DNA from: an uncultured Chitinophaga sp.
GTDB taxonomy: Bacteria > Bacteroidota > Bacteroidia > Chitinophagales > Chitinophagaceae
Reading direction: 5' to 3'
Length of the DNA stretch: 64,000 nucleotides
Assembly (NCBI GenBank): GCA_964386395.1
Contig: CAYLRV010000001.1
Coordinates: 23,807-87,806 of the forward strand
Both the position numbers and the translations under genes were made by a program. Shown piece after piece: positions 29,584 to 42,667 of the stretch (its first letter is position 1; every line of letters begins with the position of its first letter). A model generated the notes under the pieces. It saw nothing but the letters and a program-made list of their open reading frames with translations, did no database searches and was not told the origin of the DNA.

Positions 29584-31035
29584 TTACTCTCCTACAACCT
29601 CCTCGCTTCCTTTCTTTCGCCAGGATCTATGTTTAGCCCCGTCCATTTTTACAATCTTCGGGGTAAACTTACCGACCACATCCACCAATGCCTTCTGTGA
29701 TTGCATCACAACATTAATATCCTTGTAGGCAAAAGGTGATTCATCCAGTCCGCCACCCAGCAGTTTTACGCCAAACTTATCCAGTTCGTCTTTCATCTGC
29801 TTATCGGTAACAGAAGCGATGGCCCTTGTACGGCTCATCTTCCGTCCGGCACCATGCGAGGCAGAGTTGACAGATGCGGATTCGCCTTTACCTTTTACAA
29901 TAAATCCATCGGCGGTCATTGAGCCCGGTATAATACCCAATACATCTTTACCTGCAGGTGTTGCGCCTTTACGGTGAACGATCACATCCTTACCTTCCCA
30001 TTTTTCTTTCCAGGCAAAATTGTGGTGATTCTCCACCATCTTCACTGGTTTACGTCCCAGTTGCTTCGCAATTTTGGCATGTATTACATGGTGACAGGCG
30101 CTGGCATAATCACCAGCCAGGTTCATTGCATTCCAATACTCTATGCCTTCTTCTTCATCCAGCAAAAGCCAGGCAAGATTTTTTGATTCCTGCGGCAAAC
30201 GCCTTTTGCTGATAGCCAGTTTAGTATAGTGGTTCGCTATGTTAGCACCTAGTGCCCGAGAACCGGAGTGAGTAAGAAAACCAATGTACTTACCAGCTTC
30301 TATACCCAATACCTGATCTTCTTCTGCAATATCCACGACGCCAAATTCGGCGAAGTGGTTACCCGACCCGGATGAACCTAACTGCTTCCACACACGGCCA
30401 TGCAATTTTTTCAGCATCGGTAGTTGAAAAAATAATTCATGCTCCATCACTTCGTGGTTAGCCGCCCGATCGAATTGTGCGCCGCTGCCAAACAATGTAG
30501 CCTCATTGATTTCACGGGCAAAATATGATTCCCGGTCCGTCAGATCTTTTGGGTTGATATCGAATACACTCAGGCACATACGGCATCCGATGTCTACTCC
30601 TACTCCGTAAGGGATAACAGCATTCTCGGTTGCCAGTACGCCACCGATTGGCAATCCATACCCGCTATGTGCATCTGGCATCAAGGCGCCGGCCACACTC
30701 ACCGGCAATTTAGCTGCCTGGTACATCTGGTGCATAGCGCCTTCTTCGATATGTTCCTGTCCAAATACATTAAACTGTATGCCGGTTTGGTTCAGCGAAA
30801 TTTCTGCCCCTTCCGTTTCTTTCTTTGGTATCAGCTGTTCTGCTATCAATGCAAGTACTGCGTCATTGCTGTACTCGATTGGATTGGCCAATACTTTTTG
30901 TAATAGTTCCATCACTTCCTCCTTTCCATGATGCTTATATTTTTTTTGCATCACATCCATTGCTATGCTAATTACCGGTCCTTCCGGGTAGCCAATAGTC
31001 CTTAGTTCTTTTCCTGTTATTTTTAGTTTACTCAT
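29584..31035 (-). CDS. rtcB: RNA 3'-phosphate/2',3'-cyclic-phosphate to 5'-OH ligase RtcB
   Basis: Start at ATG 31035 (MSKLKITG). Diagnostic blocks MPDAHSGYGLPIGGV, GVDIGCRM, GSGNHF, HSGSR, NHHNFA and SASHGAGR. The roughly 90-aa N-terminal extension is not found in E. coli RtcB. Confidence 0.9.
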   Translation of the reverse strand: MSKLKITGKELRTIGYPEGPVISIAMDVMQKKYKHHGKEEVMELLQKVLANPIEYSNDAVLALIAEQLIPKKETEGAEISLNQTGIQFNVFGQEHIEEGAMHQMYQAAKLPVSVAGALMPDAHSGYGLPIGGVLATENAVIPYGVGVDIGCRMCLSVFDINPKDLTDRESYFAREINEATLFGSGAQFDRAANHEVMEHELFFQLPMLKKLHGRVWKQLGSSGSGNHFAEFGVVDIAEEDQVLGIEAGKYIGFLTHSGSRALGANIANHYTKLAISKRRLPQESKNLAWLLLDEEEGIEYWNAMNLAGDYASACHHVIHAKIAKQLGRKPVKMVENHHNFAWKEKWEGKDVIVHRKGATPAGKDVLGIIPGSMTADGFIVKGKGESASVNSASHGAGRKMSRTRAIASVTDKQMKDELDKFGVKLLGGGLDESPFAYKDINVVMQSQKALVDVVGKFTPKIVKMDGAKHRSWRKKGSEEVVGE

Positions 31036-31039
31036 TGTT

Positions 31040-31130
31040 TTGTTTTTTGAAACACGGTGACAGAGAGACAGGGGCGGCACAGTGTTTTTCGGTGTTGCCC
31101 TGTGTCGTTATGCCTTTGTGGTTCTATTTT
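31040..31130. repeat. GAACCACRRAG-type repeat arm (family shared with the GxxExxY cassette flanks)
   Basis: The reverse complement reads gaaccacaaaggcataacgacacagggcaac.... Compare gaaccacggagacacaaggacaggg at 38937. Confidence 0.45.
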
Positions 31131-31429: not shown

Positions 31430-32527
31430 TTATTTACTTACCAAAATCTGCTTCAACTGCTCTAATAGCTGACCGTTACCGCCTACGCTGATATTGCTGA
31501 TTTTGTCGGCAATTTTCTCCACGTATTCCATTTCCTTCAGCTTCCAAAGCATGGCATTTTCTTCCATCAGTTTGGCTGTGTTCAGCAGGCTACGGGTGCT
31601 GGCAGTTTCTTCACGACGCATAATGGTGTTGGCCTGCGCCTTCTTTTCTGCCACCAGTACCTGGTTCATAATCTCTTTCATATCACCTGGCAGTATGATA
31701 TCACGAATACCAAAACCATTCACCGCAACACCCAATGCTTCTGCTTTTCCTTTCACACTTTGCAGGATAAAAGGAGCAATGGCTTCCTTCTTTTCCAGCA
31801 ATTCATCAAAGCCGAATCCGGCAATGTATTCACGCAGGGCCAGTTGCAGCGCCACGTACAGTTGCTTATCGTATTCTTTGTTCAGCACCATAGCTATTTC
31901 AAGGTCTGTTACGTTGTACTGTGACCAGGCATTGATACGCAATGCAGCCTTATCACGGGTCAGTATTTCCTGACCGTTGATTTCCAGTTGTTGCTGACGC
32001 ATATCTGCTTTCGCTACATGGATAGTGATACTGTTCTTCCACCAATAGTAGGTACCTGCATCCAGTTGCTTTACAAACTTACCATCTATGAACAACACCG
32101 CTTTCTCATAGCTTTGCACCTCGTAGTTACGCACCCAGTTGCTCACCGGTGCTTTTACCAGTACGGCACGGTCGATAGCCGTATCGATTTCAACCTGGCT
32201 GATATCAGCCCGAACGAAATCATTTTGCACAACAGATTTCCAGAATGCATAACGGCCGGCCGCCAGCACCTGCTTCAACAGGCCATTTTCGTATTGCAAC
32301 ACTATTTCTGTGTCTTTCACTTCCACTACCTGCAGTATAGCAGCCAGCTCCTTGTCCTGCAACAGGATGTTTAGTTCTACCGGTGCAGTGAATTGTTTGG
32401 TAATATCATAGATATATACCTGTTCGTTTTTCCAGAACCAGTAATTACCAGTCAGCAGCAGGCGCTTGTAGGCGCCATCTTTGAACACCAAACCAACCTG
32501 CCATGCGTTAATTTTTACTTTTTTCAT
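31430..32527 (-). CDS. SPFH/band-7 (slipin-like) domain protein with a duplicated N-terminal beta-rich region
   Basis: Start at ATG 32527 (MKKVKINAWQVGLVFKDG). C-terminal SPFH-type block IRDIILPGDMKEIMNQVLVAEKKAQANTIMRREETA. The N-terminal half contains two similar YWFWKN / YYWWKN segments. Confidence 0.7.
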   Translation of the reverse strand: MKKVKINAWQVGLVFKDGAYKRLLLTGNYWFWKNEQVYIYDITKQFTAPVELNILLQDKELAAILQVVEVKDTEIVLQYENGLLKQVLAAGRYAFWKSVVQNDFVRADISQVEIDTAIDRAVLVKAPVSNWVRNYEVQSYEKAVLFIDGKFVKQLDAGTYYWWKNSITIHVAKADMRQQQLEINGQEILTRDKAALRINAWSQYNVTDLEIAMVLNKEYDKQLYVALQLALREYIAGFGFDELLEKKEAIAPFILQSVKGKAEALGVAVNGFGIRDIILPGDMKEIMNQVLVAEKKAQANTIMRREETASTRSLLNTAKLMEENAMLWKLKEMEYVEKIADKISNISVGGNGQLLEQLKQILVSK

Positions 32528-32839
32528 TTTACTTGTTTTGCCCGTCAATAAACATTTATTTACTGTCAGCATGATTAATTAAAATAAAGCCGTGCTTGCC
32601 GCCACCAGTTACTACGGAATGAGATTAATACAACCCAGTTTCGTACAGTTCTTCACTCCCTCATCAGCTATACGTATATAACAAACTATGAGTGACGAAG
32701 TATAGTCAACTTCATTATACGCTTCTTATTTCGGGTAGCTGCCCGGCTGTATTGGTACAGGCTGCTTTAGCGTCCCGACCAATTACAGGCAACAAACCCG
32801 GCTTTTATCGGTCACCATTTTTTGAGAAGTGGTGTACTT

Positions 32840-33163: not shown

Positions 33164-34240
33164 TTAATTCATCAATGTCTCCGGCAGGCGAAACCCAATT
33201 ATCTCGGTCTGCTTTACTTCCTGCTGCTTTTCATGCGGGTTGGCGATCTCCGCTATTGTCATCGGACCGGTTATTGTTTTATCATATCCCAAATGTTCGC
33301 TTAGCCGCTGCGCTTTTTCTTTACTGAGCTTTCCGAATTCATAACGGGCTATCAACCTTCCTTTCCGCAACAGGGCACTGTCAATGGCTGTCAGTGAACT
33401 GTTGAATGTGCATATCAATTGCACATTCAGGAAGTCGGCCAGCAGACCATCTGATATATTCAGCAGGTTACTCACCGCTGAACTGCTGTTTTGCTTCCTG
33501 TCCATGATAATATTCTCGGCATCTTCAATTATCAAGACTGTATTCGGGTTATTGATCAGCAGTTCGATAAACTCAGGGTTCATCAGGTTTCCCGCTACCG
33601 ATGGTGAAAGGAATAAAACCCTTTTCTTTACCTTACCCACCAGGTACCGTAAATAGGTTGTCTTTCCTGTACCCGGTAAACCATGCAGCAGTACAATACC
33701 TTTGTCATTCTTTTGCCTGAGCCTTTTTTGTATGACCGTATCCACATCTTTAAAATCGTCTTCGTAAAAAAGTCCCAGATCCAGCTTTGTCCGTTTTATT
33801 TCCATCGCCCGCAGATCCATCGAATTCCGGCTTTGCACAATCAGGTTGATCTCCAATGGCTGCCGGCGTTGCCTTTCTTTAAACTGAAGGGCAATGGCAA
33901 CAATCGCTTTTACCAGTTCCCCGTCACTGCCATCGTGGAGTATTTCGCAATAGTCATCCTCCAGCTCCACAATACAGTTTTGTTGCAACACAATAAGCGT
34001 TTTATCAAACTGAAATTTCTTCTTTTTACGCTTGTACCAGGTCGTCCGATGAATGTTCTTTATTGATTGCGCAAATTTCTCCTGCAATACAGCAAACACC
34101 TTCTCCCCTTCCACATCGCTGATAAAATTGATGTTTGGCAGTGCGTTAAAACTGTACAGGTACAACATCTTTGCGTCCAGGAAAGAGTCGCCAAACACAT
34201 TGTTTGCGTTTATAACTTTCTGACTGTATAGATTTTCCAT
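33164..34240 (-). CDS. AAA+ ATPase (classical AAA clade, Bcs1-like architecture) with an uncharacterised N-terminal domain
   Basis: Walker A HGLPGTGKTT, Walker B VLIIEDAE, second region of homology with RKGRL. The N-terminal roughly 190 aa carry no recognisable motifs. Confidence 0.8.
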   Translation of the reverse strand: MENLYSQKVINANNVFGDSFLDAKMLYLYSFNALPNINFISDVEGEKVFAVLQEKFAQSIKNIHRTTWYKRKKKKFQFDKTLIVLQQNCIVELEDDYCEILHDGSDGELVKAIVAIALQFKERQRRQPLEINLIVQSRNSMDLRAMEIKRTKLDLGLFYEDDFKDVDTVIQKRLRQKNDKGIVLLHGLPGTGKTTYLRYLVGKVKKRVLFLSPSVAGNLMNPEFIELLINNPNTVLIIEDAENIIMDRKQNSSSAVSNLLNISDGLLADFLNVQLICTFNSSLTAIDSALLRKGRLIARYEFGKLSKEKAQRLSEHLGYDKTITGPMTIAEIANPHEKQQEVKQTEIIGFRLPETLMN

Positions 34241-34341: not shown

Positions 34342-34848
34342 TTACTGTACCACTTTATTTGCACAGCTGGAGCTGGCAAAAGCTTCCGGTTTAGCCTTGA
34401 AAGCAAAACCCCTGCCTGTCCGGCAGGCAGGCATTCCCATGATATAGCCCATAGCTTCCTTCAGGGCATCGTTACTTTTAAAGTTTGGGTTGGTGTTGAT
34501 GTCCGCATGCACTTCCATATCCACACTGTAGCGGCTGAATATGTTGCACAGTGCATAGGCTACTTCGATACTTTTCTGTACTTCCATCAACATCCGTTCT
34601 TTAATCGTCATACGCTGGCGGGTTGTTTCATTATGGATATACATGAAACCACCTTTCCCTTTCCGGATGAATACGATTACCGTGGCAAACTCAGTCACCC
34701 TGGCTTTCACCTGGCTATCGGTACCAATGCAGACTTTCAATTCATGTCCATTCTCTTTTTCCTGCATCAATACACGGCTTACCTCTTCCGCAATCGGGAT
34801 TTGAATCCGTTCACCGGTCAATTTTCTCCATTGTTGTTCCTGTTCCAT
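34342..34848 (-). CDS. YkuK/DUF458-family RNase-H-like protein
   Basis: 168 aa. KVCIGTDSQ, FATVIVFIRKGKGGF and KPEAFASS resemble the DUF458 family. Carries the 21-nt palindrome in frame at 34411-34431. The start codon lies 30 nt downstream (minus sense) of the last tRNA-like element. Confidence 0.55.
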   Translation of the reverse strand: MEQEQQWRKLTGERIQIPIAEEVSRVLMQEKENGHELKVCIGTDSQVKARVTEFATVIVFIRKGKGGFMYIHNETTRQRMTIKERMLMEVQKSIEVAYALCNIFSRYSVDMEVHADINTNPNFKSNDALKEAMGYIMGMPACRTGRGFAFKAKPEAFASSSCANKVVQ

Positions 34849-34877
34849 TGTTTTTGTTTTTCAATGTTGTGCTGCAT

Positions 34878-34943
34878 AAGTACAAGGATTCGATCCACCT
34901 CCGGTGGATTGTAAGCCATTATGCTACCGTTACATCATACTTG
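34878..34943 (-). ncRNA. Degenerate tRNA-like element A (66 nt)
   Basis: Acceptor-like pairing AAGTATG/TGTACTT plus A73. The interior has a CTTACAA loop-like segment, the hairpin TCCACC-GGA-GGTGGA, and TCGAATCC, but no canonical T-stem. Confidence 0.3.
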
Positions 34944-34950
34944 CTTTTGT

Positions 34951-35022
34951 GGACAAAACAGGATTCGAACCTGTACTGCTGCGGCTTCAACGCAGTGCTC
35001 TGCCATTGGAGCTATTTGTCCT
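34951..35022 (-). tRNA. tRNA-Phe(GAA)
   Basis: GGACAAA TA GCTC-CAATGGCA-GAGC A CTGCG-TTGAAGC-CGCAG CAGT ACAGG-TTCGAAT-CCTGT TTTGTCC A. A fully canonical cloverleaf with no encoded CCA. Confidence 0.9.
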
Positions 35023-35116
35023 TTTGTTTGTACCTGCACTGGCTGATCTTTTACACTTCATCACCGAATTGTGTTGCACAAACTCTGTCTTCCCGCCATA
35101 GCGGAATTATCATTGC

Positions 35117-35204
35117 GGAGAGTAAAGGATTCGAACCTTTGTACCGTTGTGAACGACAGCCCAAGCTTAGCAGGCTGGCACATTACCACTCTGTCAACCC
35201 TCCT
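35117..35204 (-). tRNA. tRNA-Ser(GCU), class II
   Basis: GGAGGGT TG ACA-GAGTGGTAA-TGT G CCAGC-CTGCTAA-GCTTG, long variable arm GTCGTT-CAC-AACGGT, AAAGG-TTCGAAT-CCTTT ACTCTCC G. There is one C.U mismatch in the anticodon stem. Confidence 0.75.
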
Positions 35205-35208
35205 TTGT

Positions 35209-35292
35209 GTGATTAATAAGATTCGAACTTATTCAGCCCGAAGGCAACGGTTTTACAGACCGTTACGACTCTCCGTCTTCGTCGTACTCACC
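35209..35292 (-). tRNA. tRNA-Tyr(GUA), class II
   Basis: GTGAGTA CG ACGA-AGACGGAGAG-TCGT A ACGGT-CTGTAAA-ACCGT, variable arm GCC-TTCG-GGC, ATAAG-TTCGAAT-CTTAT TAATCAC A. Has C8 instead of U8 and one G.A mismatch in the acceptor. Confidence 0.8.
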
Positions 35293-35303
35293 AAAATTTC
35301 AGC

Positions 35304-35380
35304 GGATGAAGAAAGGGTCGAACTTTCAACCATCGGCTTAACATCCGCCACTGGCGGACTGCCATTGAGCTATTCATCCA
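35304..35380 (-). ncRNA. tRNA-like element E (perfect acceptor and T-arm, non-canonical core)
   Basis: GGATGAA TA GCTC AATGGCAG [TCCGCC-AGT-GGCGGA] TGTTAAGCCGATGGTT GAAAG-TTCGACC-CTTTC TTCATCC G. It has no D-stem partner and no 5-bp stem with a 7-nt anticodon loop. ATGTTAA could be a GUU (Asn) loop only with a poor stem. Confidence 0.4.
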
Positions 35381-35384
35381 TTGT

Positions 35385-35458
35385 TGTCCCGGTGAGATTC
35401 GAACTCACAACCCCCCGGTTAAAAGCCGGGTACATCTTCCAGTTGAGCTACGAGACAT
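35385..35458 (-). tRNA. tRNA-Lys(UUU) with a weak D-stem
   Basis: TGTCTCG TA GCTC-AACTGGAA-GATG TA CCCGG-CTTTTAA-CCGGG GGGTT GTGAG-TTCGAAT-CTCAC CGGGACA A. U1-A72 pair. Only 2 of 4 D-stem pairs form. Confidence 0.65.
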
Positions 35459-35464
35459 TTTTGT

Positions 35465-35556
35465 TGCGGCTACCGGATTCACTGTCTGCCGACAGGCAGG
35501 GAACCAGTAACTCCTGCCATGTAAAAACAGCTTTCTCCCATTGAATTAAGCCGCAC
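35465..35556 (-). tRNA. tRNA-Val(UAC)-like with a 20-nt T-loop insertion
   Basis: TGCGGCT TA ATTC-AATGGGA-GAAA G CTGTT-TTTACAT-GGCAG GAGTT ACTGG-TTC[CCTGCCTGTCGGCAGACAGT]GAAT-CCGGT AGCCGCA A. The insertion occupies plus 35482-35501. Confidence 0.6.
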
Positions 35557-35573
35557 TGCTTCATAAGGTTTGT

Positions 35574-35645
35574 GATGGTTGACAGATTCGAACTGTCAGC
35601 CGCTATCGTATCAGGATAGTACTCTGCCATTGAGTTAAACCATCA
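35574..35645 (-). tRNA. tRNA-Ile(GAU)
   Basis: GATGGTT TA ACTC-AATGGCA-GAGT A CTATC-CTGATAC-GATAG CGGCT GACAG-TTCGAAT-CTGTC AACCATC A. Canonical cloverleaf. Confidence 0.9.
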
Positions 35646-35649
35646 TTGT

Positions 35650-35721
35650 TGCGGCTGCCAGATTCGAACCAGCATTTGAAGCTTATGAGACTTCTGAGTT
35701 AGCCATTACGCTAAACCGCAA
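35650..35721 (-). tRNA. tRNA with CAU anticodon (Met or Ile2; cannot be distinguished here)
   Basis: TGCGGTT TA GCGT-AATGGCTA-ACTC A GAAGT-CTCATAA-GCTTC AAAT GCTGG-TTCGAAT-CTGGC AGCCGCA A. One D-stem mismatch and a G.U-rich T-stem. Confidence 0.7.
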
Positions 35722-35730
35722 TTAATATGT

Positions 35731-35804
35731 AAGCCTGGTGAGAATCGAACTCACACTACATGGCTTCTAAGGCCATTGCCTCTCCCAATTGGGCTACAAG
35801 CTTA
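35731..35804 (-). tRNA. tRNA with Leu anticodon UAG on a class I (short variable loop) body
   Basis: AAGCTTG TA GCCC-AATTGGGAG-AGGC A ATGGC-CTTAGAA-GCCAT GTAGT GTGAG-TTCGATT-CTCAC CAGGCTT A. Confidence 0.7.
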
Positions 35805-35814
35805 TTTCATTTGT

Positions 35815-35887
35815 CGGCCAGACTGGATTCGAACCAGTAACCTTTTGCGTATAAGGCAACTGCTCACACCGTTGAGCTACAGGCCGC
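35815..35887 (-). tRNA. tRNA-Ile(UAU)
   Basis: CGGCCTG TA GCTC-AACGGTGT-GAGC A GTTGC-CTTATAC-GCAAA AGGTT ACTGG-TTCGAAT-CCAGT CTGGCCG A. One U.U mismatch in the acceptor. Confidence 0.8.
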
Positions 35888-35895
35888 TTGTTTGC

Positions 35896-35988
35896 TGACT
35901 CAGAAAGATTCCCTGCCAGTCGGCAGACAGGGAACTTTCATCTCCTCATTCGTAGTGAGGTGTTCTTCTCCATTGAACTATAAGTCAT
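35896..35988 (-). tRNA. tRNA-Arg(ACG) with a 20-nt T-loop insertion
   Basis: TGACTTA TA GTTC-AATGGAGAA-GAAC A CCTCA-CTACGAA-TGAGG AGAT GAAAG-TTC[CCTGTCTGCCGACTGGCAGG]GAAT-CTTTC TGAGTCA G. The insertion occupies plus 35913-35932. All four stems are otherwise good. Confidence 0.7.
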
Positions 35989-35993
35989 CATTG

Positions 35994-36110
35994 TACGGCT
36001 TCAGGAATTCCTGCCTGGCCGGCAGCCAGGGAACCTCTGCAACGATCACCTGCTATTTTCCTCTCAGAAAGAAAGGGAGGTGATTATGTTTCCATTACAA
36101 CAAGCCGTAT
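35994..36110 (-). tRNA. Aberrant tRNA-like gene (possible Gln-CUG) with a T-loop insertion and an elongated anticodon arm
   Basis: Acceptor ACGGCTT/AAGCCGT (or TACGGCT/AGCCGTA). Outer stem CACCT/AGGTG encloses CCC TTTCT-TTCTGAG-AGGAA AATAGC. T-loop TTC[CCTGGCTGCCGGCCAGGCAG]GAAT (insertion at plus 36012-36031). The T-stem is weak. Confidence 0.4.
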
Positions 36111-36113
36111 TGG

Positions 36114-36186
36114 GTGCACTGCGGGGCTCGAACCCTGTTCTCCCGATGCACAGTCGGGCACTTTACCAAATAAGCTACAGCCACCA
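36114..36186 (-). tRNA. tRNA-His(GUG) with encoded G-1
   Basis: G(-1) GTGGCTG TA GCTT-ATTTGGTA-AAGT G CCCGA-CTGTGCA-TCGGG AGAA CAGGG-TTCGAGC-CCC.. CAGTGCAC C. G-1 lies opposite C73. The 3' acceptor strand has TG where C is expected, giving a 1x2 internal loop. Confidence 0.7.
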
Positions 36187-36191
36187 TCTGT

Positions 36192-36283
36192 TACCCGGCT
36201 CAGACTCCCTGTCTGCTGACAGGCAGGGAACTGAGAATACCAGACTCAAATTCTGGTGTGTTGCCAATTACACCACCCGGTAA
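36192..36283 (-). tRNA. tRNA-Gln(UUG) with a 20-nt T-loop insertion
   Basis: TACCGGG TG GTGT-AATTGGCA-ACAC A CCAGA-ATTTGAG-TCTGG TATT CTCAG-TTC[CCTGCCTGTCAGCAGACAGG]GAGT-CTGAG CCGGGTA A. The insertion occupies plus 36209-36228. Confidence 0.7.
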
Positions 36284-36287
36284 TCGT

Positions 36288-36335
36288 GCAGCATGAGTGA
36301 ATCCCTGTCTGCAGACTGGAAGTGAACATGCAGCC
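36288..36335 (-). ncRNA. Acceptor-stem-like hairpin enclosing a short copy of the palindrome, flanked by AGTGAA direct repeats
   Basis: gcagcatg (36289-36296) pairs with catgcagc (36328-36335) with one mismatch. The interior is agtgaa-tccctgtctgcagactgg-aagtgaa. The 3' side is followed by CGAT, like the CAAT trailers of the array. Confidence 0.3.
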
Positions 36336-36455
36336 TTCCGCCGCGGCGGATATCCGGCCAATCGAAATGCTCCTATATTTTGCTCAAAGAACTTTTGGAA
36401 AAGCATCCCCGCTGCACCTGCGGGGAGCTTTGTCCCTCCTTCTGCACATAATCTG

Positions 36456-37331: not shown

Positions 37332-37739
37332 TCAAATATCAACTGAATCATACACTATTACTTTACTCCACAAATGCGAATATTCCTCAATGAAAAGCAG
37401 GTGAATGGGATCAGTTTGATAACTCGCATGGTCTGCATCATTTTCAAAATACACCAGCCAGGATACAGCATAGCCTCTTTCAATTACTTCACGATTAGTA
37501 TCAGCCGGTTTACCAATCCGGAAACTTTTTATCGTTTTTACTTTCGATAATTTATGCAAACCTTCCACTAATTTTTCCCTGTCAGCAAGATTGTCCGTAT
37601 TCTTTAACCAGAAGAATACATGATGAATAAATGCAGCCTTCTTTTTGCCAGTTGATTTTGTTCCTGAAAAAGAAGATAACCCTGTTACGAGTGCGGCTGC
37701 ACCTGCTTTATTGATAAATTGTTTGCGGGTTTGTTTCAT
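37332..37739 (-). CDS. Dabb (stress-responsive A/B barrel) family protein with a Tat-like signal
   Basis: Start at ATG 37739 (MKQTRKQFINKAGAAALVTG). FIHHVFFWLKN...ASYQTDPIHLLFIE is typical of Dabb domains. Confidence 0.65.
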   Translation of the reverse strand: MKQTRKQFINKAGAAALVTGLSSFSGTKSTGKKKAAFIHHVFFWLKNTDNLADREKLVEGLHKLSKVKTIKSFRIGKPADTNREVIERGYAVSWLVYFENDADHASYQTDPIHLLFIEEYSHLWSKVIVYDSVDI

Positions 37740-37800
37740 GATGCCTGTATTTTCGGCATAAGGTAATGCAAAATTAAATGCCGGCAATCGCAGACCTGTT

Positions 37801-38910
37801 TCAAAACAACCTCCCCTGCCCGCCCGGTACCTGGAACTTACTCCTGTCAAGGCTCCATTCCTCCGCATTCATGCCGTATAGCTTACCGTATTTTTTATAC
37901 TGCATCGCTACCATCTCTGCGATATTCCCTTCGCCACGCATGCGTACGCCCCATCGGGTATCATTTACTTTTCCATCGTGGCTTTGTTCGATCAGGTGCC
38001 ACACTTTATCTGCCCTGTCGGGAAAGTTCTTATATAACCAGTCGTGAAATAGAAATTTTATCGCCCCGTTGAGCCGTATGAATGTATACGCTGTAAAGGT
38101 TGCGCCGTTGTCCTTCGCTGCTTTCATGATACGCTGCATTTCATGTTCATTCAGGCCCGGTATCATCGGCCCCATCATGATGCCCATCCGTACTCCTGCG
38201 CTGCTTAACTCGTTTATCACTTTCAGTTTTTGCTTAGCTGTGGTGGTGCGTGGCTCCATTGCCCTTCGCAGATCTTCATTGAAGGATGTAATGGATACCA
38301 TGGCTGACACAATCTGTTTCTTGCCCATTTCCTGCAGCACATCCTTGTCCTTCAGTATCCAGGAGTTTTTGGTGAGTATACCTACCGGCTGGTTAAATTC
38401 ATTGCAGACTTCCAGTAATCCTCTCGTCAGCCGGTATTTTTGTTCGGCAGGCTGGTAGCAATCGGTATTGCCACTGAGCATGATCGGCGTGGCATCCCAA
38501 TCCTTTTTCATCAGGAATTTTCGCAGCAGTTGTGGTGCATTTTTCTTGACAATTATTTTTCGCTCAAAATCCAGCCCGGCACTGTAACCCCAGTATTCAT
38601 GCACATTTCTTGCATAGCAATAGATGCAGCCATGCTCGCACCCGGCATACGGGTTCATGCTGTACATCATTCCCACATCCCTGCTCTCTACTTTGTTTAC
38701 GATGGTTTTTGATTCCTGTTCCATGTAAATAGTTGGCACATTTGATTCTTCCCAGTCGTCAATGCCTTCAATGTGCTCTCTTGTTGTTTCATTTTTTAAA
38801 AACCGGTTCTTTGTATTGAACTGGGCACCGCGACCGGCGAGGTAGGGCTTTGTTTCTTCAGGTTGCTTCACTTCTACTTTGAAATGATCTTGTTGCAAAT
38901 CCTTGCTCAT
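37801..38910 (-). CDS. Radical SAM protein (PA0069 / SplB-like COG1533 family)
   Basis: CxxxCxxC cluster motif in AGCEHGCIYCYARN. The length and remaining sequence fit the PA0069-type family. Confidence 0.75.
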   Translation of the reverse strand: MSKDLQQDHFKVEVKQPEETKPYLAGRGAQFNTKNRFLKNETTREHIEGIDDWEESNVPTIYMEQESKTIVNKVESRDVGMMYSMNPYAGCEHGCIYCYARNVHEYWGYSAGLDFERKIIVKKNAPQLLRKFLMKKDWDATPIMLSGNTDCYQPAEQKYRLTRGLLEVCNEFNQPVGILTKNSWILKDKDVLQEMGKKQIVSAMVSITSFNEDLRRAMEPRTTTAKQKLKVINELSSAGVRMGIMMGPMIPGLNEHEMQRIMKAAKDNGATFTAYTFIRLNGAIKFLFHDWLYKNFPDRADKVWHLIEQSHDGKVNDTRWGVRMRGEGNIAEMVAMQYKKYGKLYGMNAEEWSLDRSKFQVPGGQGRLF

Positions 38911-38929: not shown

Positions 38930-39482
38930 ATTATTTTGAACCACGGAGACACAAGGACAGGGAGATGCACAGATATACACATACTGCCGGGAGACAGTCA
39001 CGGTGAGCTGGCGACAGGGAGAAGCACAAAAGCCGTGCTTATTTTTAAAGAATCATCCTTTTAATGCCATCTTTCATAAGCGGTGCGTGAAAATTTAATA
39101 CATAGCCAAGCCGCTTTTGTGTAAGGCGCAGGTAACTTAATAGCTGGGCATCCCAAACGGGATGATAGTTATCCTGCGCTTTCAATTCAACAATTATTAA
39201 ATTGTCAATCAATATATCAATCCGAAGACCATCACTAATGATCAATTTATCGTATACCAGTTCTACATTTTTTTGAACAACAAACGGAATATCCCTTTTG
39301 GTCAATTCATAACAGAAGCATTTTTCATACACACTTTCAATTAAGCCCGGACCGAGAAACCTATGGATCTTTATAGCAATATCCATTATTTGATATGTCA
39401 GCCATATTTCCCTTTCGGTTAAAGGTTTATGCTTTTTTTCTGTGCCGCTCCGTGCCGTCATGCCGCTGTGGTTCAAAATATA
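38930..39482. mobile_element. GxxExxY gene cassette bounded by GAACCAC...GTGGTTC inverted repeats
   Basis: Left arm gaaccacggagacacaaggacaggg (about 38937). Right arm ...ccgtcatgccgctgtggttc (about 39455-39474). The gene sits between them. Confidence 0.5.
39045..39461 (-). CDS. GxxExxY protein (PD-(D/E)XK-like family)
   Basis: Eponymous motif GPGLIESVYEKC (G-x-x-E-x-x-Y). The likely start is ATG 39461. Confidence 0.8.
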   Translation of the reverse strand: MTARSGTEKKHKPLTEREIWLTYQIMDIAIKIHRFLGPGLIESVYEKCFCYELTKRDIPFVVQKNVELVYDKLIISDGLRIDILIDNLIIVELKAQDNYHPVWDAQLLSYLRLTQKRLGYVLNFHAPLMKDGIKRMIL

Positions 39483-39483
39483 A

Positions 39484-40095
39484 TCAGAATAACTCCCCCT
39501 GCTTCGTTGCAACCGGCAGGTTCTGGAATTGGAATGTTGCTGCAATACGATATTTCATTTCCCCCACCGGCCGTTTGAGCAAAGTCATGCCATCAGCAAT
39601 AAACCGACCGGTAAAATGCTTTTGACTATACTCCAGCCAGCCCTTTTCATACTGCCAGGGCTTTAATTTCCGGGCAATGGTCAGGTGGGGCTCCATGATA
39701 AAATGCGGTTTATTATCCTCGTTCAGTTTCATCAGGCGCTGGCTTTCTGTACGGATGCTTTTTACCAGGCCTTGTACCGGTAATTTGCTGGTTACATTGA
39801 TATAAATAGTATGCGCCGGAAAACTGCCAAAATCTTTCAGCTCCACTTTAAATGGCGGGAAGCCCATGGCCACATTCCGCAGCCGGTTTAGTATCCGTTC
39901 TTCCAGCATGGCATGCTGCACAAAATTGACCAGCGTAATATGCGGCTTGCCCCATCTTGCATGATCCGATTTGTACGCAGTAGCAAAATCCTCCTTCACT
40001 TTCATTATCCTTTTCCATAGCTCTTCGTGCGGACTAAGCACCAATAAGTACTCATATTCCCGGTAGCCCGGGATCGTGTTGATAATACTTTCCAT
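39484..40095 (-). CDS. 2H-phosphoesterase superfamily protein (LigT / ThpR-like 2'-5' RNA ligase family)
   Basis: Two HxT motifs at the expected spacing: KPHITLVNF and EPHLTIARK. Confidence 0.7.
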   Translation of the reverse strand: MESIINTIPGYREYEYLLVLSPHEELWKRIMKVKEDFATAYKSDHARWGKPHITLVNFVQHAMLEERILNRLRNVAMGFPPFKVELKDFGSFPAHTIYINVTSKLPVQGLVKSIRTESQRLMKLNEDNKPHFIMEPHLTIARKLKPWQYEKGWLEYSQKHFTGRFIADGMTLLKRPVGEMKYRIAATFQFQNLPVATKQGELF

Positions 40096-40247: not shown

Positions 40248-40685
40248 ATGGACGGAGAAGATTTTTTTGGGGCCGCATATAAGGGCTCAAAGCAGTTCAA
40301 GCAACAGGAAGTAAAAACAGCGAACGCCACCGGCTTTGGCGCTGCCGCCGATGATTATATGGAACGGGGTATTGATTTGAATGAGCAACTGATACGAAAC
40401 AAGCCCGCCACCTTCTTCTTCCGCATGAAAGGCGACGCTATGCAGGAAGCAGGTATTTTTGACGGCGATACGCTTATTGTAGATCGCTCTATAAAACTGG
40501 CTAACGGAAAAATAATCGTAGCCATTCTTAACGGAGAATTACTGGTACGCCGGTTCCATAAAAACTTTTCTTCCGCTTTCCTGATTGCCGAAAACAACCG
40601 GTATAAAAATATCAACCTGGCCGAGTTCAGCAACTTCGCTGTGTGGGGGGTGGTGACGTATACGATACACCCCGTCGGCGGTTGA
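40248..40685 (+). CDS. umuD: UmuD-like S24-family protein lacking the Ser/Lys catalytic dyad
   Basis: Collinear with E. coli UmuD (DYMERGIDLNEQLI..., DGDTLIVDRS...). GDSM is replaced by GDAM, and the TVKK lysine region reads LVRR. Confidence 0.7.
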   Translation: MDGEDFFGAAYKGSKQFKQQEVKTANATGFGAAADDYMERGIDLNEQLIRNKPATFFFRMKGDAMQEAGIFDGDTLIVDRSIKLANGKIIVAILNGELLVRRFHKNFSSAFLIAENNRYKNINLAEFSNFAVWGVVTYTIHPVGG

Positions 40686-41371
40686 AAACCCGGCGGGGTT
40701 CGCTTACTAATAAAATTAATTTGTATGGATATTCAACCGATAATCGAAGGCCAGTACTTCCATATTTACAATCGTGGTGTAAACAGCGAAGATATTTTTA
40801 AAGAAAAAAAGAATTACTACTATTTTCTTAAACAGTACAGCTTTTATTGCAATACGGTACTGGATACACTGGCGTATTGCTTATTGAAAAATCATTTTCA
40901 TTTACTCGTGTATGTCAAAGAAAATGTGGAAGTACCCCGCACTGACGGAAAAGAAGGCAGCTTTCGTCTGCATGCATCCAAACAACTGGGGCATTTTTTC
41001 AACTCCTACGCCCAATCCATCAATAAGGCCTATAAACGTACGGGACAACTTTTCGAATCCCCGTTTGAAAGAAAACTGGTGGACGATGAAAGTTATATGA
41101 TGTCCCTGATCTATTACTGTAATCAAAACGCCGTACATCATGGCTTCGTTAAGAGCACAAATGACTGGGAATTTTCTTCCTACCACGCTGTAATAAAAAA
41201 CGATAAAAGCCTTGTGGCTGTAGACCAGGTACTAAAGCGATTTGGCGATATTCAGCGATTTAAAGAAGCGCATACAACTAATAGCATAAAAGAAAAAGAG
41301 CAACAATATATTATAGACTATTAATCACTCTCCTATTTTAAACTACCGTCGGGGCCTACAGCCGCCGACGG
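40672..41371 (+). mobile_element. Y1-transposase-like cassette inserted between umuD and umuC, bounded by a 13-bp inverted repeat
   Basis: accccgtcggcgg (about 40669-40681, overlapping the umuD stop) versus ccgccgacggagt (41362-41374). 12 of 13 positions are complementary. Confidence 0.5.
40725..41324 (+). CDS. IS200/RAYT-like Y1 (HUH) transposase-family protein
   Basis: YFHIYNRG, the HUH-like NHFHLLV motif, and the C-terminal tyrosine helix LIYYCNQNAVHHGFV. Confidence 0.65.
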   Translation: MDIQPIIEGQYFHIYNRGVNSEDIFKEKKNYYYFLKQYSFYCNTVLDTLAYCLLKNHFHLLVYVKENVEVPRTDGKEGSFRLHASKQLGHFFNSYAQSINKAYKRTGQLFESPFERKLVDDESYMMSLIYYCNQNAVHHGFVKSTNDWEFSSYHAVIKNDKSLVAVDQVLKRFGDIQRFKEAHTTNSIKEKEQQYIIDY

Positions 41372-41383
41372 AGTTTGCCGAAG

Positions 41384-42667
41384 ATGATGAAAGCAATCGT
41401 TGACTGTAATAACTTCTACTGTTCCTGCGAAAGGTTGTTTAAACCGGCGCTGGAGAATAAACCCGTTGTTGTACTGAGCAACAATGACGGCTGCATCATT
41501 TCACGCAGTAACGAAGCAAAAAAACTGGGCGTTGAAATGGCCGGGCCCTTCTTTATGGCCAGGCCCCTGATTAAAAAATATGATGTCGCTGTTTTCTCGT
41601 CTAATTACAATTTGTATGGCGACCTGAGCTGGCGGGTAATGGAAACCCTGCGGATACTATTGGGGGAAAATAATGTAGAAGTTTATTCGGTAGATGAAGC
41701 CTTCCTTGATCTGGATATTTTTCCGGTGAATGATCTGCAGGCCATCGGAGAAAAAATAAAAACCACAGTTGAAATGTGGACAGGTATTAAAGTATCTGTT
41801 GGTGTGGCTCCTACCAAGGTATTGGCCAAAGCAGCTAACCGCCTTGCAAAAAAGAACCCGGAGAAATACCAGGGCGTAATGGTGCTGCACAATGAAGAAG
41901 AAATTATATCGGCACTGCGGCAAACACAAATAGACGATATATGGGGTGTGGGCAGGCAGTATGCCCAGAAACTGAAAGAGCAGTATTGCATTTATGACGC
42001 CCTGCAGTTAAGCCGGATGAGTGAAGAGTTTGGAAGAACACAGTTAGGCGGTGTCACCGGCGTCCGCCTCCTGAAAGAACTGAAAGGAGAACCTGCGAAA
42101 GATATGGAAGATGAACTGGTGGTAAAAAAAATGATTGCCACTACCCGTATGTTCGGCAGCCCTGTGGGCGATATCGCATCTATCAAAGAAGCCGTAGCCA
42201 CTTATGCATCGAGGGCCGCTGAAAAATTAAGAAGGCAACATAGTGCGGCAAAAGTGATCAATGTCTTTGTCGTAACCAAAGAGGAGAACCACAATGTAGA
42301 TTTCCGGGGCGCCACCAACGGAACGTCCGTTATACTGCCCGCTGCTACGTCCGCTACCAATGAACTGATAAAACCGGCGGTGGCACTGGTTGACAAGTTA
42401 TTTGAAGCAGGAAAACTATATAAAAAAGCAGGCGTAATGCTGAGTGGCATTGTGCCAGACAACTCTATACAGGGTAATCTCTTTCTCCCCGGCACCAAAA
42501 ACTGCGAACGAAAACTGATGGACATGATTGATAACGTCAACTTCAGCCAGCGGGATGATGTTTTAAAATTTGCGGCCAGCGGTACTACCCGCAACTGGAA
42601 GATGCAGCAGAATTTTATCAGCGATCGTTATACCAGCCGTTGGAATGAATTGTATGAAGTAAGCTGA
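41384..42667 (+). CDS. umuC: Y-family DNA polymerase (UmuC, Pol V catalytic subunit)
   Basis: MMKAIVDCNNFYCSCE..., SNNDGC, YSVDEAFLD, KVLAK. The ORF-track start at 41375 is a TTG, so ATG 41384 or 41387 is more likely. Confidence 0.85.
   Translation: MMKAIVDCNNFYCSCERLFKPALENKPVVVLSNNDGCIISRSNEAKKLGVEMAGPFFMARPLIKKYDVAVFSSNYNLYGDLSWRVMETLRILLGENNVEVYSVDEAFLDLDIFPVNDLQAIGEKIKTTVEMWTGIKVSVGVAPTKVLAKAANRLAKKNPEKYQGVMVLHNEEEIISALRQTQIDDIWGVGRQYAQKLKEQYCIYDALQLSRMSEEFGRTQLGGVTGVRLLKELKGEPAKDMEDELVVKKMIATTRMFGSPVGDIASIKEAVATYASRAAEKLRRQHSAAKVINVFVVTKEENHNVDFRGATNGTSVILPAATSATNELIKPAVALVDKLFEAGKLYKKAGVMLSGIVPDNSIQGNLFLPGTKNCERKLMDMIDNVNFSQRDDVLKFAASGTTRNWKMQQNFISDRYTSRWNELYEVS

Follow-up and report, generated by a model that had tools for sequence, protein, structure and literature searches.

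A tRNA array in an RNA-repair gene module of Chitinophagaceae, with tRNA genes probably damaged by a short palindrome

The tRNA array

The window (the whole stretch of 64,000 nt analysed here, from an uncultured Chitinophaga sp.) carries an array of 16 tRNA-derived units on the minus strand, at 36376-34875. According to our own unit table, 15 units are located inside 34878-36283 as originally predicted (about 15 close-packed tRNA or tRNA-like genes), and a degenerate 16th unit lies upstream at 36376-36287. The units are listed below, with PAL for the palindrome described in the next section and RF00005 for the covariance-model score (gathering score, 29 bits).

36287-36376, minus: U0, degenerate first unit; the orthologue is the tRNA-Pro(UGG) that opens related arrays
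36191-36282, minus: U1, tRNA-Gln(UUG) with PAL at 36208-36227 between nt 56 and 57
36113-36185, minus: U2, tRNA-His(GUG) with G-1; one G is bulged out of the acceptor 3' strand
35994-36108, minus: U3, tRNA-like and conserved; the anticodon arm is long, with the loop UUUCUGA (UCU)
35895-35987, minus: U4, tRNA-Arg(ACG) with inverted PAL at 35912-35931 between nt 56 and 57
35814-35886, minus: U5, tRNA-Ile(UAU); ARAGORN; RF00005 64.2 bits
35730-35803, minus: U6, Leu anticodon UAG on a class I body without long variable arm, 74 nt; ARAGORN; RF00005 59 bits
35649-35720, minus: U7, anticodon CAU (Met, or Ile if lysidine-modified); ARAGORN; RF00005 49.8 bits
35573-35644, minus: U8, tRNA-Ile(GAU); ARAGORN; RF00005 65.8 bits
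35464-35555, minus: U9, tRNA-Val(UAC) with PAL at 35481-35500 between nt 56 and 57
35384-35457, minus: U10, tRNA-Lys(UUU); ARAGORN; RF00005 53.5 bits
35303-35379, minus: U11, tRNA-Asn(GUU)-derived, with mismatches; RF00005 33.2 bits
35208-35291, minus: U12, tRNA-Tyr(GUA), class II; ARAGORN at relaxed threshold; RF00005 38 bits
35116-35203, minus: U13, tRNA-Ser(GCU), class II; ARAGORN; RF00005 52.8 bits
35022-35115, minus: non-tRNA spacer of 94 nt between the Ser and Phe units, read directly from the sequence
34950-35021, minus: U14, tRNA-Phe(GAA); ARAGORN; RF00005 63.5 bits
34875-34944, minus: U15, degenerate last unit, orthologues Trp(CCA)-like; RF00005 23.6 bits

The arrangement agrees with the original prediction in several respects. 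The gaps between units are 4-17 nt, with the 94-nt spacer as the single exception; the sequence of this spacer is kept in the related arrays L278, L279, L280 and L048. The discriminator is never followed by CCA (0/16 units). The CAA trailer was found in 11 of the 15 units in 34878-36283, and the other four trailers, CAG (2), CAT (1) and CTG (1), also begin with C. The nucleotide pair U1-A72 starts the Gln, Arg-ACG, Met, Val and Lys units. The claim that only Phe, Ile-GAU, Ile-UAU and Tyr look standard was too pessimistic. Seven tRNAs (Phe, Ser-GCU, Lys, Ile-GAU, Met, Leu-UAG and Ile-UAU) were detected by ARAGORN with default settings. Nine units reached the RF00005 gathering score in the scan of the whole window, and ten of the 16 did so with laxer filters (33.2-65.8 bits). 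The ten include the Tyr, His and Asn-derived units; the His unit scores 36.3 bits and is found by ARAGORN at the relaxed threshold only. U1, U4 and U15 are below the threshold (17.9-26.2 bits), and U0, U3 and U9 were not reported by the covariance-model scan. At the position of U15, whose own fold is weak, L279 has a Trp-CCA tRNA according to ARAGORN, and L278 an odd unit with CCAA.

A palindrome in the T loops

A canonical cloverleaf with a 7-nt T loop is absent from U0, U1, U3, U4 and U9. The A/U-rich, mismatched stems noted in the original prediction are a minor factor here; the main cause of the non-canonical units, which it had missed, is short palindromic hairpin inserts of 20-21 nt in these five T loops. 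The consensus of the insert (PAL), CCTGCCTGCC-GGCAGGCAGG, is a perfect palindrome of 20 nt, and the copies are located exactly between nt 56 and 57. The copies of U3 (21 nt, 36010-36030) and U4 are inverted with respect to those of U0 (decayed, 36304-36323), U1 and U9. With the insert, U1 and U4 score 17.9 and 26.2 bits, respectively, and U9 is detected neither by ARAGORN nor by RF00005. When the insert (20 nt in U1) was deleted in silico, ARAGORN identified Gln-UUG, Arg-ACG and Val-UAC at the default threshold, and the three units became perfect cloverleaves. The PAL-bearing units are predicted to fold into cloverleaves with an extended T arm, as in U1, where the T-arm hairpin is long. Most non-canonical members of the array are ordinary tRNA genes that have suffered damage in their DNA.

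A second hairpin type, TCCGCC..GGCGGA, replaces arms in U0 and U11. In U0 the anticodon arm is exchanged for the hairpin TCCGCCGCGGCGGA (36337-36350, PAL3 match), and the acceptor 3' strand is degenerate. The assignment of this unit is based on alignment by eye with L279, L280 and L276, in which ARAGORN finds Pro-UGG. In U11 the hairpin TCCGCCAGTGGCGGA (35344-35358, PAL3 match) takes the place of the 3' D-stem and 5' anticodon-stem strands. The orthologues of U11 are intact Asn-GUU in L020, L115, L278 and L279; L048 has PAL in the T loop, and L017 a different hairpin. The long anticodon arm of U3 is also present in L115, L278 and L280. Among the orthologues of U3, PAL is found in L115 and L279, and the site is empty in L278 and L280. 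For Arg-ACG, L020 has PAL at the same site and L017 in the D loop, whereas the site is empty in L278-L280. Between the Arg-ACG units of the window and L020, both with PAL, compensatory pair differences are observed in the acceptor and anticodon stems. Together with the perfect cloverleaves of U1, U4 and U9 after deletion of PAL, this could mean that these genes are still under selection, and functional despite PAL or after its removal.

A motif search allowing at most 3 mismatches gave six matches in the window, five of them within the array, against 0.38 expected from shuffles; two of the matches overlap one copy, and the 21-nt copy of U3 was missed owing to its indel. The sixth copy, first flagged by a terminator scan, is located outside the array:

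34411-34431, minus: PAL of 21 nt, CCTGCCTGCCGGACAGGCAGG, in frame within the YkuK-like gene and translated as PACRTGR

According to the protein alignment, this 7-aa insertion is present in P0001, P0002 and P0004 and absent from P0010, P0013, P0023, P0051 and P0008. Precise filled and empty sites are seen at the DNA level as well. The six copies differ from a common variant by 1-4 private changes or by a 1-nt insertion. The other 62 kb of the window contain no copy; all six are located within 1.9 kb of the RtcB module, a clustering that random selfish insertion does not explain.

The surrounding gene module

The array is located in a string of genes on the same strand, in the order LigT/2H, radical SAM, Dabb, array, YkuK-like RNase H-fold, AAA, Band-7 and RtcB.

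39484-40095, minus: 2H phosphoesterase (LigT / RNA 2',3'-cyclic phosphodiesterase-like), opens the module; Pfam, NCBIfam
37801-38910, minus: PA0069-family radical SAM protein, upstream of the array; Pfam, NCBIfam
37332-37868, minus: Dabb-domain protein, upstream of the array; Pfam, NCBIfam
34342-34848, minus: YkuK-like RNase H-fold protein (PF04308), immediately 3' of the array; Pfam, E=2e-34
33164-34240, minus: AAA ATPase; Pfam, synteny
31430-32572, minus: SPFH/Band-7 protein; Pfam, E=5e-27, synteny
29584-31080, minus: RtcB RNA 3'-phosphate ligase; Pfam, E=3e-81, synteny

Using the island proteins as tblastn queries, the same order was found in L048, L115, L020 and L017, and the synteny is also seen in the gene tables of L276-L281. 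The YkuK-like gene adjoins the array in L020, L048, L115 and L276-L281. The 2H phosphoesterase occupies the identical position in L279 and L017, which also share the order of the Dabb and radical SAM genes. In L279 even the outer flanks match, with a META protein on one side and an S24 peptidase and a Y-family polymerase on the other. To judge from these comparisons, the module is conserved in Chitinophagaceae MAGs, and the conserved synteny and flanks argue for vertical descent within this family. The arrays themselves vary: those of relatives contain from 5 to 14 ARAGORN tRNAs, different units are disrupted, and Pro, Glu, Asp and Trp also occur.

PAL in other genomes

PAL was found at more than 270 loci in many bacterial phyla and in phage contigs. 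They comprise at least 120 genome loci (Patescibacteria, Bacteroidota, Bdellovibrionota, Elusimicrobia, Omnitrophota, Planctomycetota and Proteobacteria), 35 viral contigs and at least 120 metagenome contigs. Isolate and complete genomes are represented (L015, L027, L032). In an unbiased sample, most sites lie between genes and have no connection with tRNAs or RtcB. At the T-arm sites elsewhere (n=104), the common asymmetric variant lies in one direction in 10 cases and in the other in 6. Orthologous sites in Asp, Asn and Arg-ACG units and in the YkuK-like gene are precisely filled or empty, with no target duplication, and copies at orthologous sites are common to independent assemblies. An intact copy of the same arm is present at most 400 nt upstream of 36 of 103 T-arm sites, and, of the 154 tRNAs at these loci, 37 have behind them a second copy of their 3' end that carries PAL. 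In the complete genome L032, a displaced 3' half of tRNA-Arg carries PAL, and PAL also occurs within dead tRNA 3' fragments. No earlier report of the palindrome was found in the literature searched.

As judged from these features, PAL behaves as a self-contained, selfish palindrome at the DNA level, because it is inserted in both orientations without target duplication, is polymorphic in presence, and is spread over many phyla and phage contigs. Where it survives in a protein gene, it does so only in a 21-nt form that keeps the frame, which points the same way. If PAL were the empty TIR-TIR form of a transposon, complete copies carrying cargo between the two PAL halves would be expected; credible half-site pairs of this kind were absent from 155 loci and the window. 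Mobilisation by RayT is unsupported, since every RayT-like gene examined (in the window, L061, L166, L176 and L282-L292) is flanked by its own hairpin, different from PAL. The window has two such genes (40725-41324 and 60973-61548), and a RayT-like gene lies within about 100-310 nt of PAL at 3 of 120 random PAL loci.

PAL resembles REP/REPIN elements with their RAYTs in being a short extragenic palindrome of many copies, with RayT-like genes in the window. However, it lacks a GTAG-type head, is perfectly palindromic, enters tRNA loops and coding sequence, and does not flank the RayT-like genes. REP-like elements do not usually keep a 20-mer almost unchanged from phylum to phylum, as is seen for PAL. 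The Rickettsia palindromic elements are selfish palindromes of about 100-150 nt inside genes. Like them, PAL is found in RNA genes and in frame in a protein gene, with presence/absence polymorphism; unlike them, it is 20 nt long, occurs in many genera and needs an extra base to keep the frame. As size and sequence are unrelated, the likeness is one of behaviour and not of membership. In the intervening sequences of 23S rRNA and in non-canonical archaeal tRNA introns, an extra hairpin replaces the terminal loop of a structured RNA, as the PAL hairpin replaces the T loop. PAL lacks a bulge-helix-bulge motif, however, and occurs in both orientations and in non-RNA contexts; the continuous predicted helix and the two orientations led us to reject an archaeal-type intron.

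Discussion

Long tRNA arrays (L-arrays) with rtcB in the neighbourhood are described in seven phyla, Bacteroidetes among them, and are reported to spread horizontally and to stay silent until translational stress (2021, PMC8421152). Compared with that description, the window array shows tRNA genes in the same orientation with very short spacers, most amino acids, pseudogenes, and rtcB and RNA-processing neighbours. The tandem run has 16 units with gaps of 4-17 nt and one of 94 nt, and RtcB, the 2H phosphoesterase and the YkuK-like protein are in the gene string. It differs from L-arrays as portrayed there in belonging to a fixed operon-like module at a chromosomal position conserved in the family, and is not obviously a transferred element. 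A keyword search of PMC8421152 retrieved no palindromic inserts and no mention of 'T-loop'. In a second system, the RtcB gene adjoins those for a Band-7 protein and for "b7a-tRNA", an RNA with a strong likeness to tRNA (Burroughs and Aravind 2016, via bioRxiv 10.1101/312249). By the definition cited there, the same adjacency is found here, with RtcB at 29584-31080, Band-7 at 31430-32572 and the array as the tRNA-like gene. The differences from the cited description are 16 units versus one, and the AAA ATPase, YkuK-like protein, radical SAM protein and 2H phosphoesterase as fixed partners. By analogy, the array would occupy the place of the single tRNA-like gene of RtcB/Band-7 systems. Since it lies within such a module, it may be regarded as an accessory tRNA set of the L-array type in a known RNA-repair system.

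The original prediction of a foreign, phage-like origin was not supported. Phage tRNA clusters are dense, without encoded CCA, with U34/G34 anticodons and an Ile-UAU gene, and the array resembles them. The BLASTN search against phages gave weak matches to single phage tRNAs only, with no phage DNA similarity beyond them, and phage or integrase genes were not found nearby. The G+C content of the array is 0.48 versus 0.44 for the window, which is no compositional anomaly, and the flanks are those of an ordinary Bacteroidota chromosome, with the context kept in L279 and the module and flanks conserved in other Chitinophagaceae genomes. A phage or mobile-element cluster of recent acquisition is thus very improbable, and by these comparisons the array is chromosomal. 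Still less credible is that the array is the housekeeping set or that the palindromes are artefacts of assembly or sequencing. Many PAL loci do come from metagenome-assembled genomes, but the six window copies are diverged, copies are shared at orthologous sites across independent assemblies, isolate and complete genomes contain PAL, and we know of no adapter sequence that it matches. As for a housekeeping role, three essential isoacceptors are interrupted, and the content of the arrays varies among relatives, from 5 to 14 tRNAs.

Two further explanations assign a function to the hairpins. PAL may be a mini intervening sequence that RNase III, the YkuK-like protein or another endonuclease of the module excises, with RtcB rejoining the halves into functional tRNAs. 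The genes flanking the array include those for RtcB, the 2H phosphoesterase and two proteins with nuclease folds, precise removal gives canonical tRNAs, the PAL-bearing units keep intact cloverleaves with compensatory changes in orthologues, and all six window copies are restricted to the module. The position 56/57 coincides with a site also used by non-canonical archaeal introns. If true, bacteria would have a tRNA splicing pathway catalysed by proteins, which would account for the joint retention of the array, nucleases, 2H phosphoesterase and RtcB and for the presence of all six window copies in one transcription unit. In the predicted folds, however, the junctions are part of one uninterrupted helix (TTC/GAA plus PAL) and show no bulge-helix-bulge, and the insert occurs in both orientations, mostly in intergenic DNA, and even in dead tRNA 3' fragments. 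The YkuK-like gene copy kept 21 nt and is translated, as expected if it is not removed from the RNA, and T-arm sites outside arrays nearly always have an intact copy nearby (cf. 36/103 and 37/154). We therefore regard excision as improbable. Slightly better placed, though also unlikely, is that the hairpin units are purposeful tRNA mimics, serving as nuclease decoys or sensors or as RtcB cofactors in the way proposed for b7a-tRNA or YrlA; blocking the T loop would bar entry to the ribosome, and the anticodon arm would still serve as bait. For the RtcB/Band-7 and Rsr/YrlA systems a tRNA-like RNA component has been proposed, related arrays repeatedly have arms replaced by stable hairpins (PAL, TCCCGA-N6-TCGGGA, TCCGCC..GGCGGA), and the odd long-anticodon-arm unit U3 is conserved across genomes. 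Yet the unit affected varies by genome and most orthologues are plain tRNAs, which looks like damage rather than design, and the same palindromes occur in unrelated intergenic DNA, phage contigs and coding sequence.

The likely explanation, in our opinion, is an accessory 16-unit array in a Chitinophagaceae RNA-repair module, with the odd units being ordinary tRNA genes damaged by PAL. The accessory part of the original prediction is supported indirectly, because the indispensable isoacceptors Gln-UUG, Arg-ACG and Val-UAC are interrupted here, because the content of relatives' arrays varies widely, and because an RtcB/Band-7 repair module surrounds the array. The array would be co-transcribed with the module, and the transcript would be cut into tRNAs by RNase P and RNase Z; as the spacers start with C-A-A and not C-C-A, CCA must be added after processing. 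PAL-bearing units would yield tRNA-like RNAs with a hairpin of 14-16 bp in place of the T loop. Most likely, such RNAs take no part in translation and are tolerated because the array is redundant. For the organism, the array may provide a spare set of tRNAs that is nearly minimal for decoding (Gln, His, Arg, Ile, Leu, Met, Val, Lys, Asn, Tyr, Ser and Phe), charged and used against ribotoxins, with RtcB resealing the tRNAs that they cut.

The tRNA array and its neighbourhood

The window is a Bacteroidota-type chromosome; its genes are of ordinary kinds, such as those for type IX secretion-tail proteins and methylmalonyl-CoA mutase. The tRNA array is embedded in a string of minus-strand genes running from 40095 to 29584.

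Genes of the string
39484-40095, minus strand, 2H phosphoesterase
39045-39545, minus strand, GxxExxY / PD-(D/E)XK_3 gene of a GxxExxY nuclease cassette
37801-38910, minus strand, PA0069-family radical SAM protein
37332-37868, minus strand, Dabb protein
34875-36376, minus strand, tRNA array
34342-34848, minus strand, YkuK-like RNase H-fold protein
33164-34240, minus strand, AAA ATPase
31430-32572, minus strand, Band-7 protein
29584-31080, minus strand, RtcB

The order of this module, from the phosphoesterase to RtcB, and homologous arrays recur in metagenome-assembled genomes of Chitinophagaceae (loci L017, L020, L048, L115 and L276-L281). The outer flanks are common to the window and L279, with a META protein past RtcB, and an S24 peptidase and a Y-family polymerase past the phosphoesterase. 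The related arrays are ordered Pro, Glu, Asp, Gln, His, an odd unit, Arg-ACG, Arg-UCU, Ile-UAU and Leu, followed by Met, Ile-GAU, Val, Lys, Asn, Tyr, Ser, Phe and a Trp-like unit, and 5 to 14 tRNAs are detectable in each.

The window array comprises 16 units (U0-U15) from 36376 down to 34875, all on the minus strand. The original prediction, made on 34878-36283, described a dense tRNA-like array with short gaps, no encoded CCA and conserved CAA trailers, and this description is correct. Fifteen of the 16 units lie within that range. According to the unit table, the gaps are 4-17 nt with the single exception of 94 nt, and CCA follows the discriminator in none of the 16. All 15 trailers in the range start with C, 11 of them with CAA, and several units start with U1-A72. 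The number of standard units was set too low. ARAGORN calls seven (Phe-GAA, Ser-GCU, Lys-UUU, Ile-GAU, Met-CAU, Leu-UAG and Ile-UAU), and in the whole-window scan the Rfam tRNA model places nine above its gathering score, or ten with laxer filters, adding Tyr-GUA, His-GUG and an Asn-derived unit. Three further units have sub-threshold scores of 17.9-26.2 bits. An Rfam search of the window and 20 palindrome-bearing loci found no RNA family besides tRNA, and a known RNA family for the odd units was therefore rejected.

Several details of the array were also recorded. The unit with the Leu anticodon UAG (35730-35803, minus strand) has a class I body without a long variable arm, and its orthologues in L280 and L278 have the anticodon CAG. 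U3 (35994-36108, minus strand) is tRNA-like with a long anticodon arm, in which an asymmetric internal loop of 8 nt separates a 7-bp outer stem from an inner stem whose loop is UUUCUGA; the unit is conserved in L115, L278 and L280. Since U3 is kept across genomes whether the palindrome described below is present or absent, it may be a non-standard RNA with a function. Ser-GCU and Phe-GAA are separated by the 94-nt spacer (35022-35115, minus strand), which is not a tRNA; its sequence is conserved in L278, L279, L280 and L048, and in the window it also contains a TTCCGC-TATG-GCGGGAA hairpin. A GC-rich hairpin with a T run, TCCCCGCAGGTGCAGCGGGGA TGCTTTT (36406-36426, minus strand), lies directly upstream of the first unit and is also found in L017, L048 and L276. 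A possible function of this hairpin is that of a terminator or attenuator governing entry into the array.

A palindromic insert in the T loops

In five units, the T-loop sequence GTTC...GA(A/T)TC, read on the minus strand, is split by about 20 nt.

Palindromic inserts in the array units
36304-36323, in U0
36208-36227, in U1
36010-36030, in U3 (21 nt)
35912-35931, in U4
35481-35500, in U9

All five inserts have the same parent sequence, CCTGCCTGTCGGCAGACAGG, with one to four private changes each, and those of U3 and U4 are oriented opposite to those of U0, U1 and U9. A motif search allowing up to three mismatches gave six matches in the window, five of them in the array; 0.38 are expected from shuffled sequences. 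When the inserts were deleted in silico, three undetected units became tRNAs for ARAGORN at its default threshold.

Units detected by ARAGORN after deletion of the insert
36282-36190, Gln-UUG
35987-35894, Arg-ACG
35555-35463, Val-UAC

The predicted fold of the insert-bearing U1 and U4 is a cloverleaf whose T arm forms a hairpin of 14-16 bp and lacks a T loop. Two units are damaged by another hairpin. In U0, TCCGCCGCGGCGGA replaces the anticodon arm, and in U11, the Asn-GUU orthologue, TCCGCCAGTGGCGGA replaces the 3' strand of the D stem and the 5' strand of the anticodon stem. The tRNA finders fail on a third of the array because of the inserts. A widespread and apparently undescribed 20-bp palindromic insertion explains the non-canonical units; no description of this sequence, or of palindromes in tRNA T loops, was found in the literature searched.

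Probable insertion into DNA

Several results point to insertion of the palindrome at the DNA level, as judged by comparison of sequences: both orientations occur, filled and empty sites are precise, and an in-frame copy in the YkuK-like gene is translated. Among the matches listed, asymmetric variants have one orientation relative to the tRNA strand in 10 cases and the other in six, and both are present in the window. Orthologous genes provide exact filled and empty sites, and no target-site duplication was found at any of these pairs.

Filled and empty sites in orthologous tRNA genes
Asp-GUC: filled in L017; empty in L020, L048 and L278
Asn-GUU: filled in L048; empty in L020, L115, L278 and L279
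Arg-ACG: filled in the T loop (window, L020) and in the D loop (L017); empty in L278-L280

The sixth copy in the window (34411-34431, minus strand, 21 nt) lies in frame within the YkuK-like gene and encodes PACRTGR, placed between GYIMGM and GFAFKAK. Five YkuK-like orthologues are without the insert and three have it. The insert variants are PACR(T/S/A)GR, and the orthologue P0005 carries a different 9-aa insert.

The palindrome might alternatively be removed from RNA. At the YkuK-like gene it is evidently not removed, because it survives there only as a version lengthened by one base, which is translated. In locus L197 (3380-4140), the palindrome breaks a Y1/HUH transposase-like frame right before the HUH motif, and removal of 20 nt reopens the frame. 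An intron in protein-coding genes was rejected, as L197 is a disrupted Y1 transposase and the YkuK-like copy is translated; the case of L248 is a coding coincidence (CopA ...AGRQV). For the tRNA units, the opposite possibility is that those bearing the palindrome are purely junk. Against this, the interrupted tRNAs remain perfect cloverleaves, the Arg-ACG orthologues of the window and L020 differ by compensatory pairs, and the six copies in the window are all found within 1.9 kb of the RtcB module. Because of these same three features, we retain a small probability that the palindrome is removed at the RNA level with RtcB, and likewise a small one that the units have a decoy role.

The palindrome in other genomes

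A scan of a genome collection for the insert in its T-loop context gave at least 120 loci. The matches listed include Patescibacteria, Bacteroidota, Bdellovibrionota, Elusimicrobia, Omnitrophota, Planctomycetota and Proteobacteria, and the consensus of their insert sites is a perfect palindrome with the halves CCTGCCTGCC and GGCAGGCAGG. Isolate genomes with palindrome sites include those of Algoriphagus sp. D3-2-R+10, Mucilaginibacter lappiensis ANJLi2 and Ca. Velamenicoccus archaeovorus LiM. Removal of the palindrome yields a tRNA at just nine of the 88 T-loop-context sites among the matches listed. Most such sites are incomplete copies of the 3' portion of a tRNA gene that is itself intact and lies directly upstream.

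Unbiased scans with the bare 20-mer gave 35 viral contigs and at least 120 metagenome contigs. Among the metagenome matches listed, none of the 127 sites is in a TTC^GA T loop, and tRNA D arms or T stems account for about six. These results indicate that the genome scan gave T-loop contexts because its search pattern required them. Among the matches listed, the great majority of GTTC^GA matches are T arms and not random hexamers, 104 being oriented with a paired T stem; thus, T arms are preferred by the palindrome, or preferentially tolerate it.

Most of the viral and metagenome sites are intergenic; the stop-free span around them has a median of 21 codons, versus 72 at random positions. Flanking direct repeats are enriched at these sites (9.8% versus 1.6%), and are imperfect and variable in length. 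Neither a conserved flanking motif nor an enriched flanking k-mer was found around them, and a longer conserved element containing the palindrome was rejected accordingly. A general preference for hairpin loops was also rejected, the enrichment being weak (stems of at least 7 at 5.5% versus 1.8% of random positions).

In many phyla, an intact tRNA gene has, 20-300 nt after it, a duplicate of its own 3' half with the palindrome in the T loop; this was observed at L001, L034, L042, L076, L091, L108 and about 30 other genome loci, and at L032 (380-1020). The tRNAs concerned are often Arg, Pro, Gly-CCC, Ala-CGC or Glu-CUC. Tandem arrays of palindrome-bearing tRNA fragments, each with a terminator hairpin, are present in L075, L120 and L036. 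Ca. Velamenicoccus archaeovorus, whose genome (L032) is complete, has a palindrome-bearing copy that retains the native downstream flank of the tRNA, and other tRNA fragments lie between this copy and the intact gene, which suggests an old attachment-site remnant. Integrated islands as the source of this arrangement were rejected, since the downstream genes are ordinary housekeeping genes without an integrase.

Other palindromes and the mobilising enzyme

At least two more palindrome families, TCCCGA-N6-TCGGGA and TCCGCC..GGCGGA, behave similarly. The former, also a perfect palindrome, replaces T arms in L115, L276 and L280, and occurs in 46 viral contigs (L295-L340). One example is TCCCGATAGCTATCGGGA, and T arms or D loops are replaced by this family in related arrays (L115 3630-3660, L276 5300-5317, L280 4765-4782 and 5402-5421, L017 and L020). 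One viral contig has both the second hairpin of U0, TCCGCCGCGGCGGA, and the T-loop palindrome within loops of a hairpin that is itself repeated. The GC-rich viral contig IMGVR_UViG_3300037242_000417 (L141 2560-3080, 8850-9080 and 10380-10760; L149 1-140) has at least six copies of the palindrome and four of CTTGTCCGCCGCGGCGGACAAG, whose core is identical to the U0 hairpin; both are nested within loops of the repeated hairpin GACCCAYCCTYG..CRAGGRTGGGTC. Older copies containing a nested palindrome were observed in L125, L143, L147 and L032.

We know of no mobilising enzyme for the palindrome. Two RayT-like genes are present in the window, at 40725-41324 (plus strand) and 60973-61548 (minus strand). 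The former, 4.4 kb from the array, matches the NCBIfam REP-associated tyrosine transposase with E=5e-12, under the family cut-off. RayT-like genes are somewhat enriched near the palindrome, one lying within about 100-310 nt at three of 120 random palindrome loci. The palindrome was not found flanking a RayT-like gene, as each gene examined has its own distinct hairpin, and its interpretation as the REP of a RayT transposase was rejected as unsupported. Likewise, no full-length element with palindrome halves as its ends was found, and the empty form of a larger terminal-inverted-repeat element was rejected for lack of separated half-sites.

Inverted repeats AC(C/T)CCGTCGGCGG(T/C)TG flank the RayT-like gene at 40725-41324, which has the S24 peptidase (40248-40685) on one side and the Y-family polymerase (41375-42667) on the other; in L279 the slot of this gene holds a different Y1 transposase (PF01797). 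The gene at 60973-61548 is flanked by CTGAG-N7-CTCAG hairpins. The GxxExxY cassette (38933-39479, minus strand) is enclosed by perfect inverted repeats of 12 nt, ATTTTGAACCAC and GTGGTTCAAAAT, and is inserted between the 2H phosphoesterase and radical SAM genes; the corresponding spacer of L279 is free of genes. The cassette arms contain many CACGGAG / CACAGA-type words, which also flank the palindrome in the metagenome loci L225, L270 and L123.

Origin and role of the array

The original prediction regarded the array as accessory or phage-like. The first term is reasonable. A phage origin was rejected, since only single tRNAs match any of 50,697 phage records at the DNA level, and the array shows no compositional anomaly relative to the window. 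Long tRNA arrays adjacent to rtcB are described in seven phyla, Bacteroidetes among them, and in Anabaena translational stress induces such arrays, whose regulation is shared with rtcB (PMC8421152). Burroughs and Aravind predicted RtcB beside a Band-7 protein and a "band-7-associated tRNA", as cited in bioRxiv 10.1101/312249. Compared with the system as outlined there, the window has a whole array in the slot otherwise occupied by one tRNA-like RNA, and thus combines the two arrangements. The array itself is of known kinds, an L-array inside an RtcB/Band-7 system, and what is added here is the explanation of its non-canonical units.

The palindrome is almost identical across candidate-phyla-radiation bacteria, Bacteroidota, predatory bacteria, Planctomycetota and phage contigs, and its insertion sites include tRNA loops and dead tRNA fragments, as well as other hairpins and even a coding sequence. 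Wherever it occurs, annotation pipelines would under-count tRNA genes.

The array would serve as a near-minimal spare set for decoding, its anticodons having U34 or G34. The tRNAs that anticodon nucleases usually attack (Lys, Gln, Arg, Tyr, His and Asn) are among its members, which may act beside the ligase resealing cut tRNAs. On this reading, an RtcB/Band-7 "RNA repair" system can carry an entire spare decoding set in place of one tRNA-like RNA, in a fixed operon retained in the family. This gives a testable model, in which repair (RtcB and the 2H phosphoesterase) and replacement (the spare tRNAs) would jointly counter tRNA-cutting toxins.
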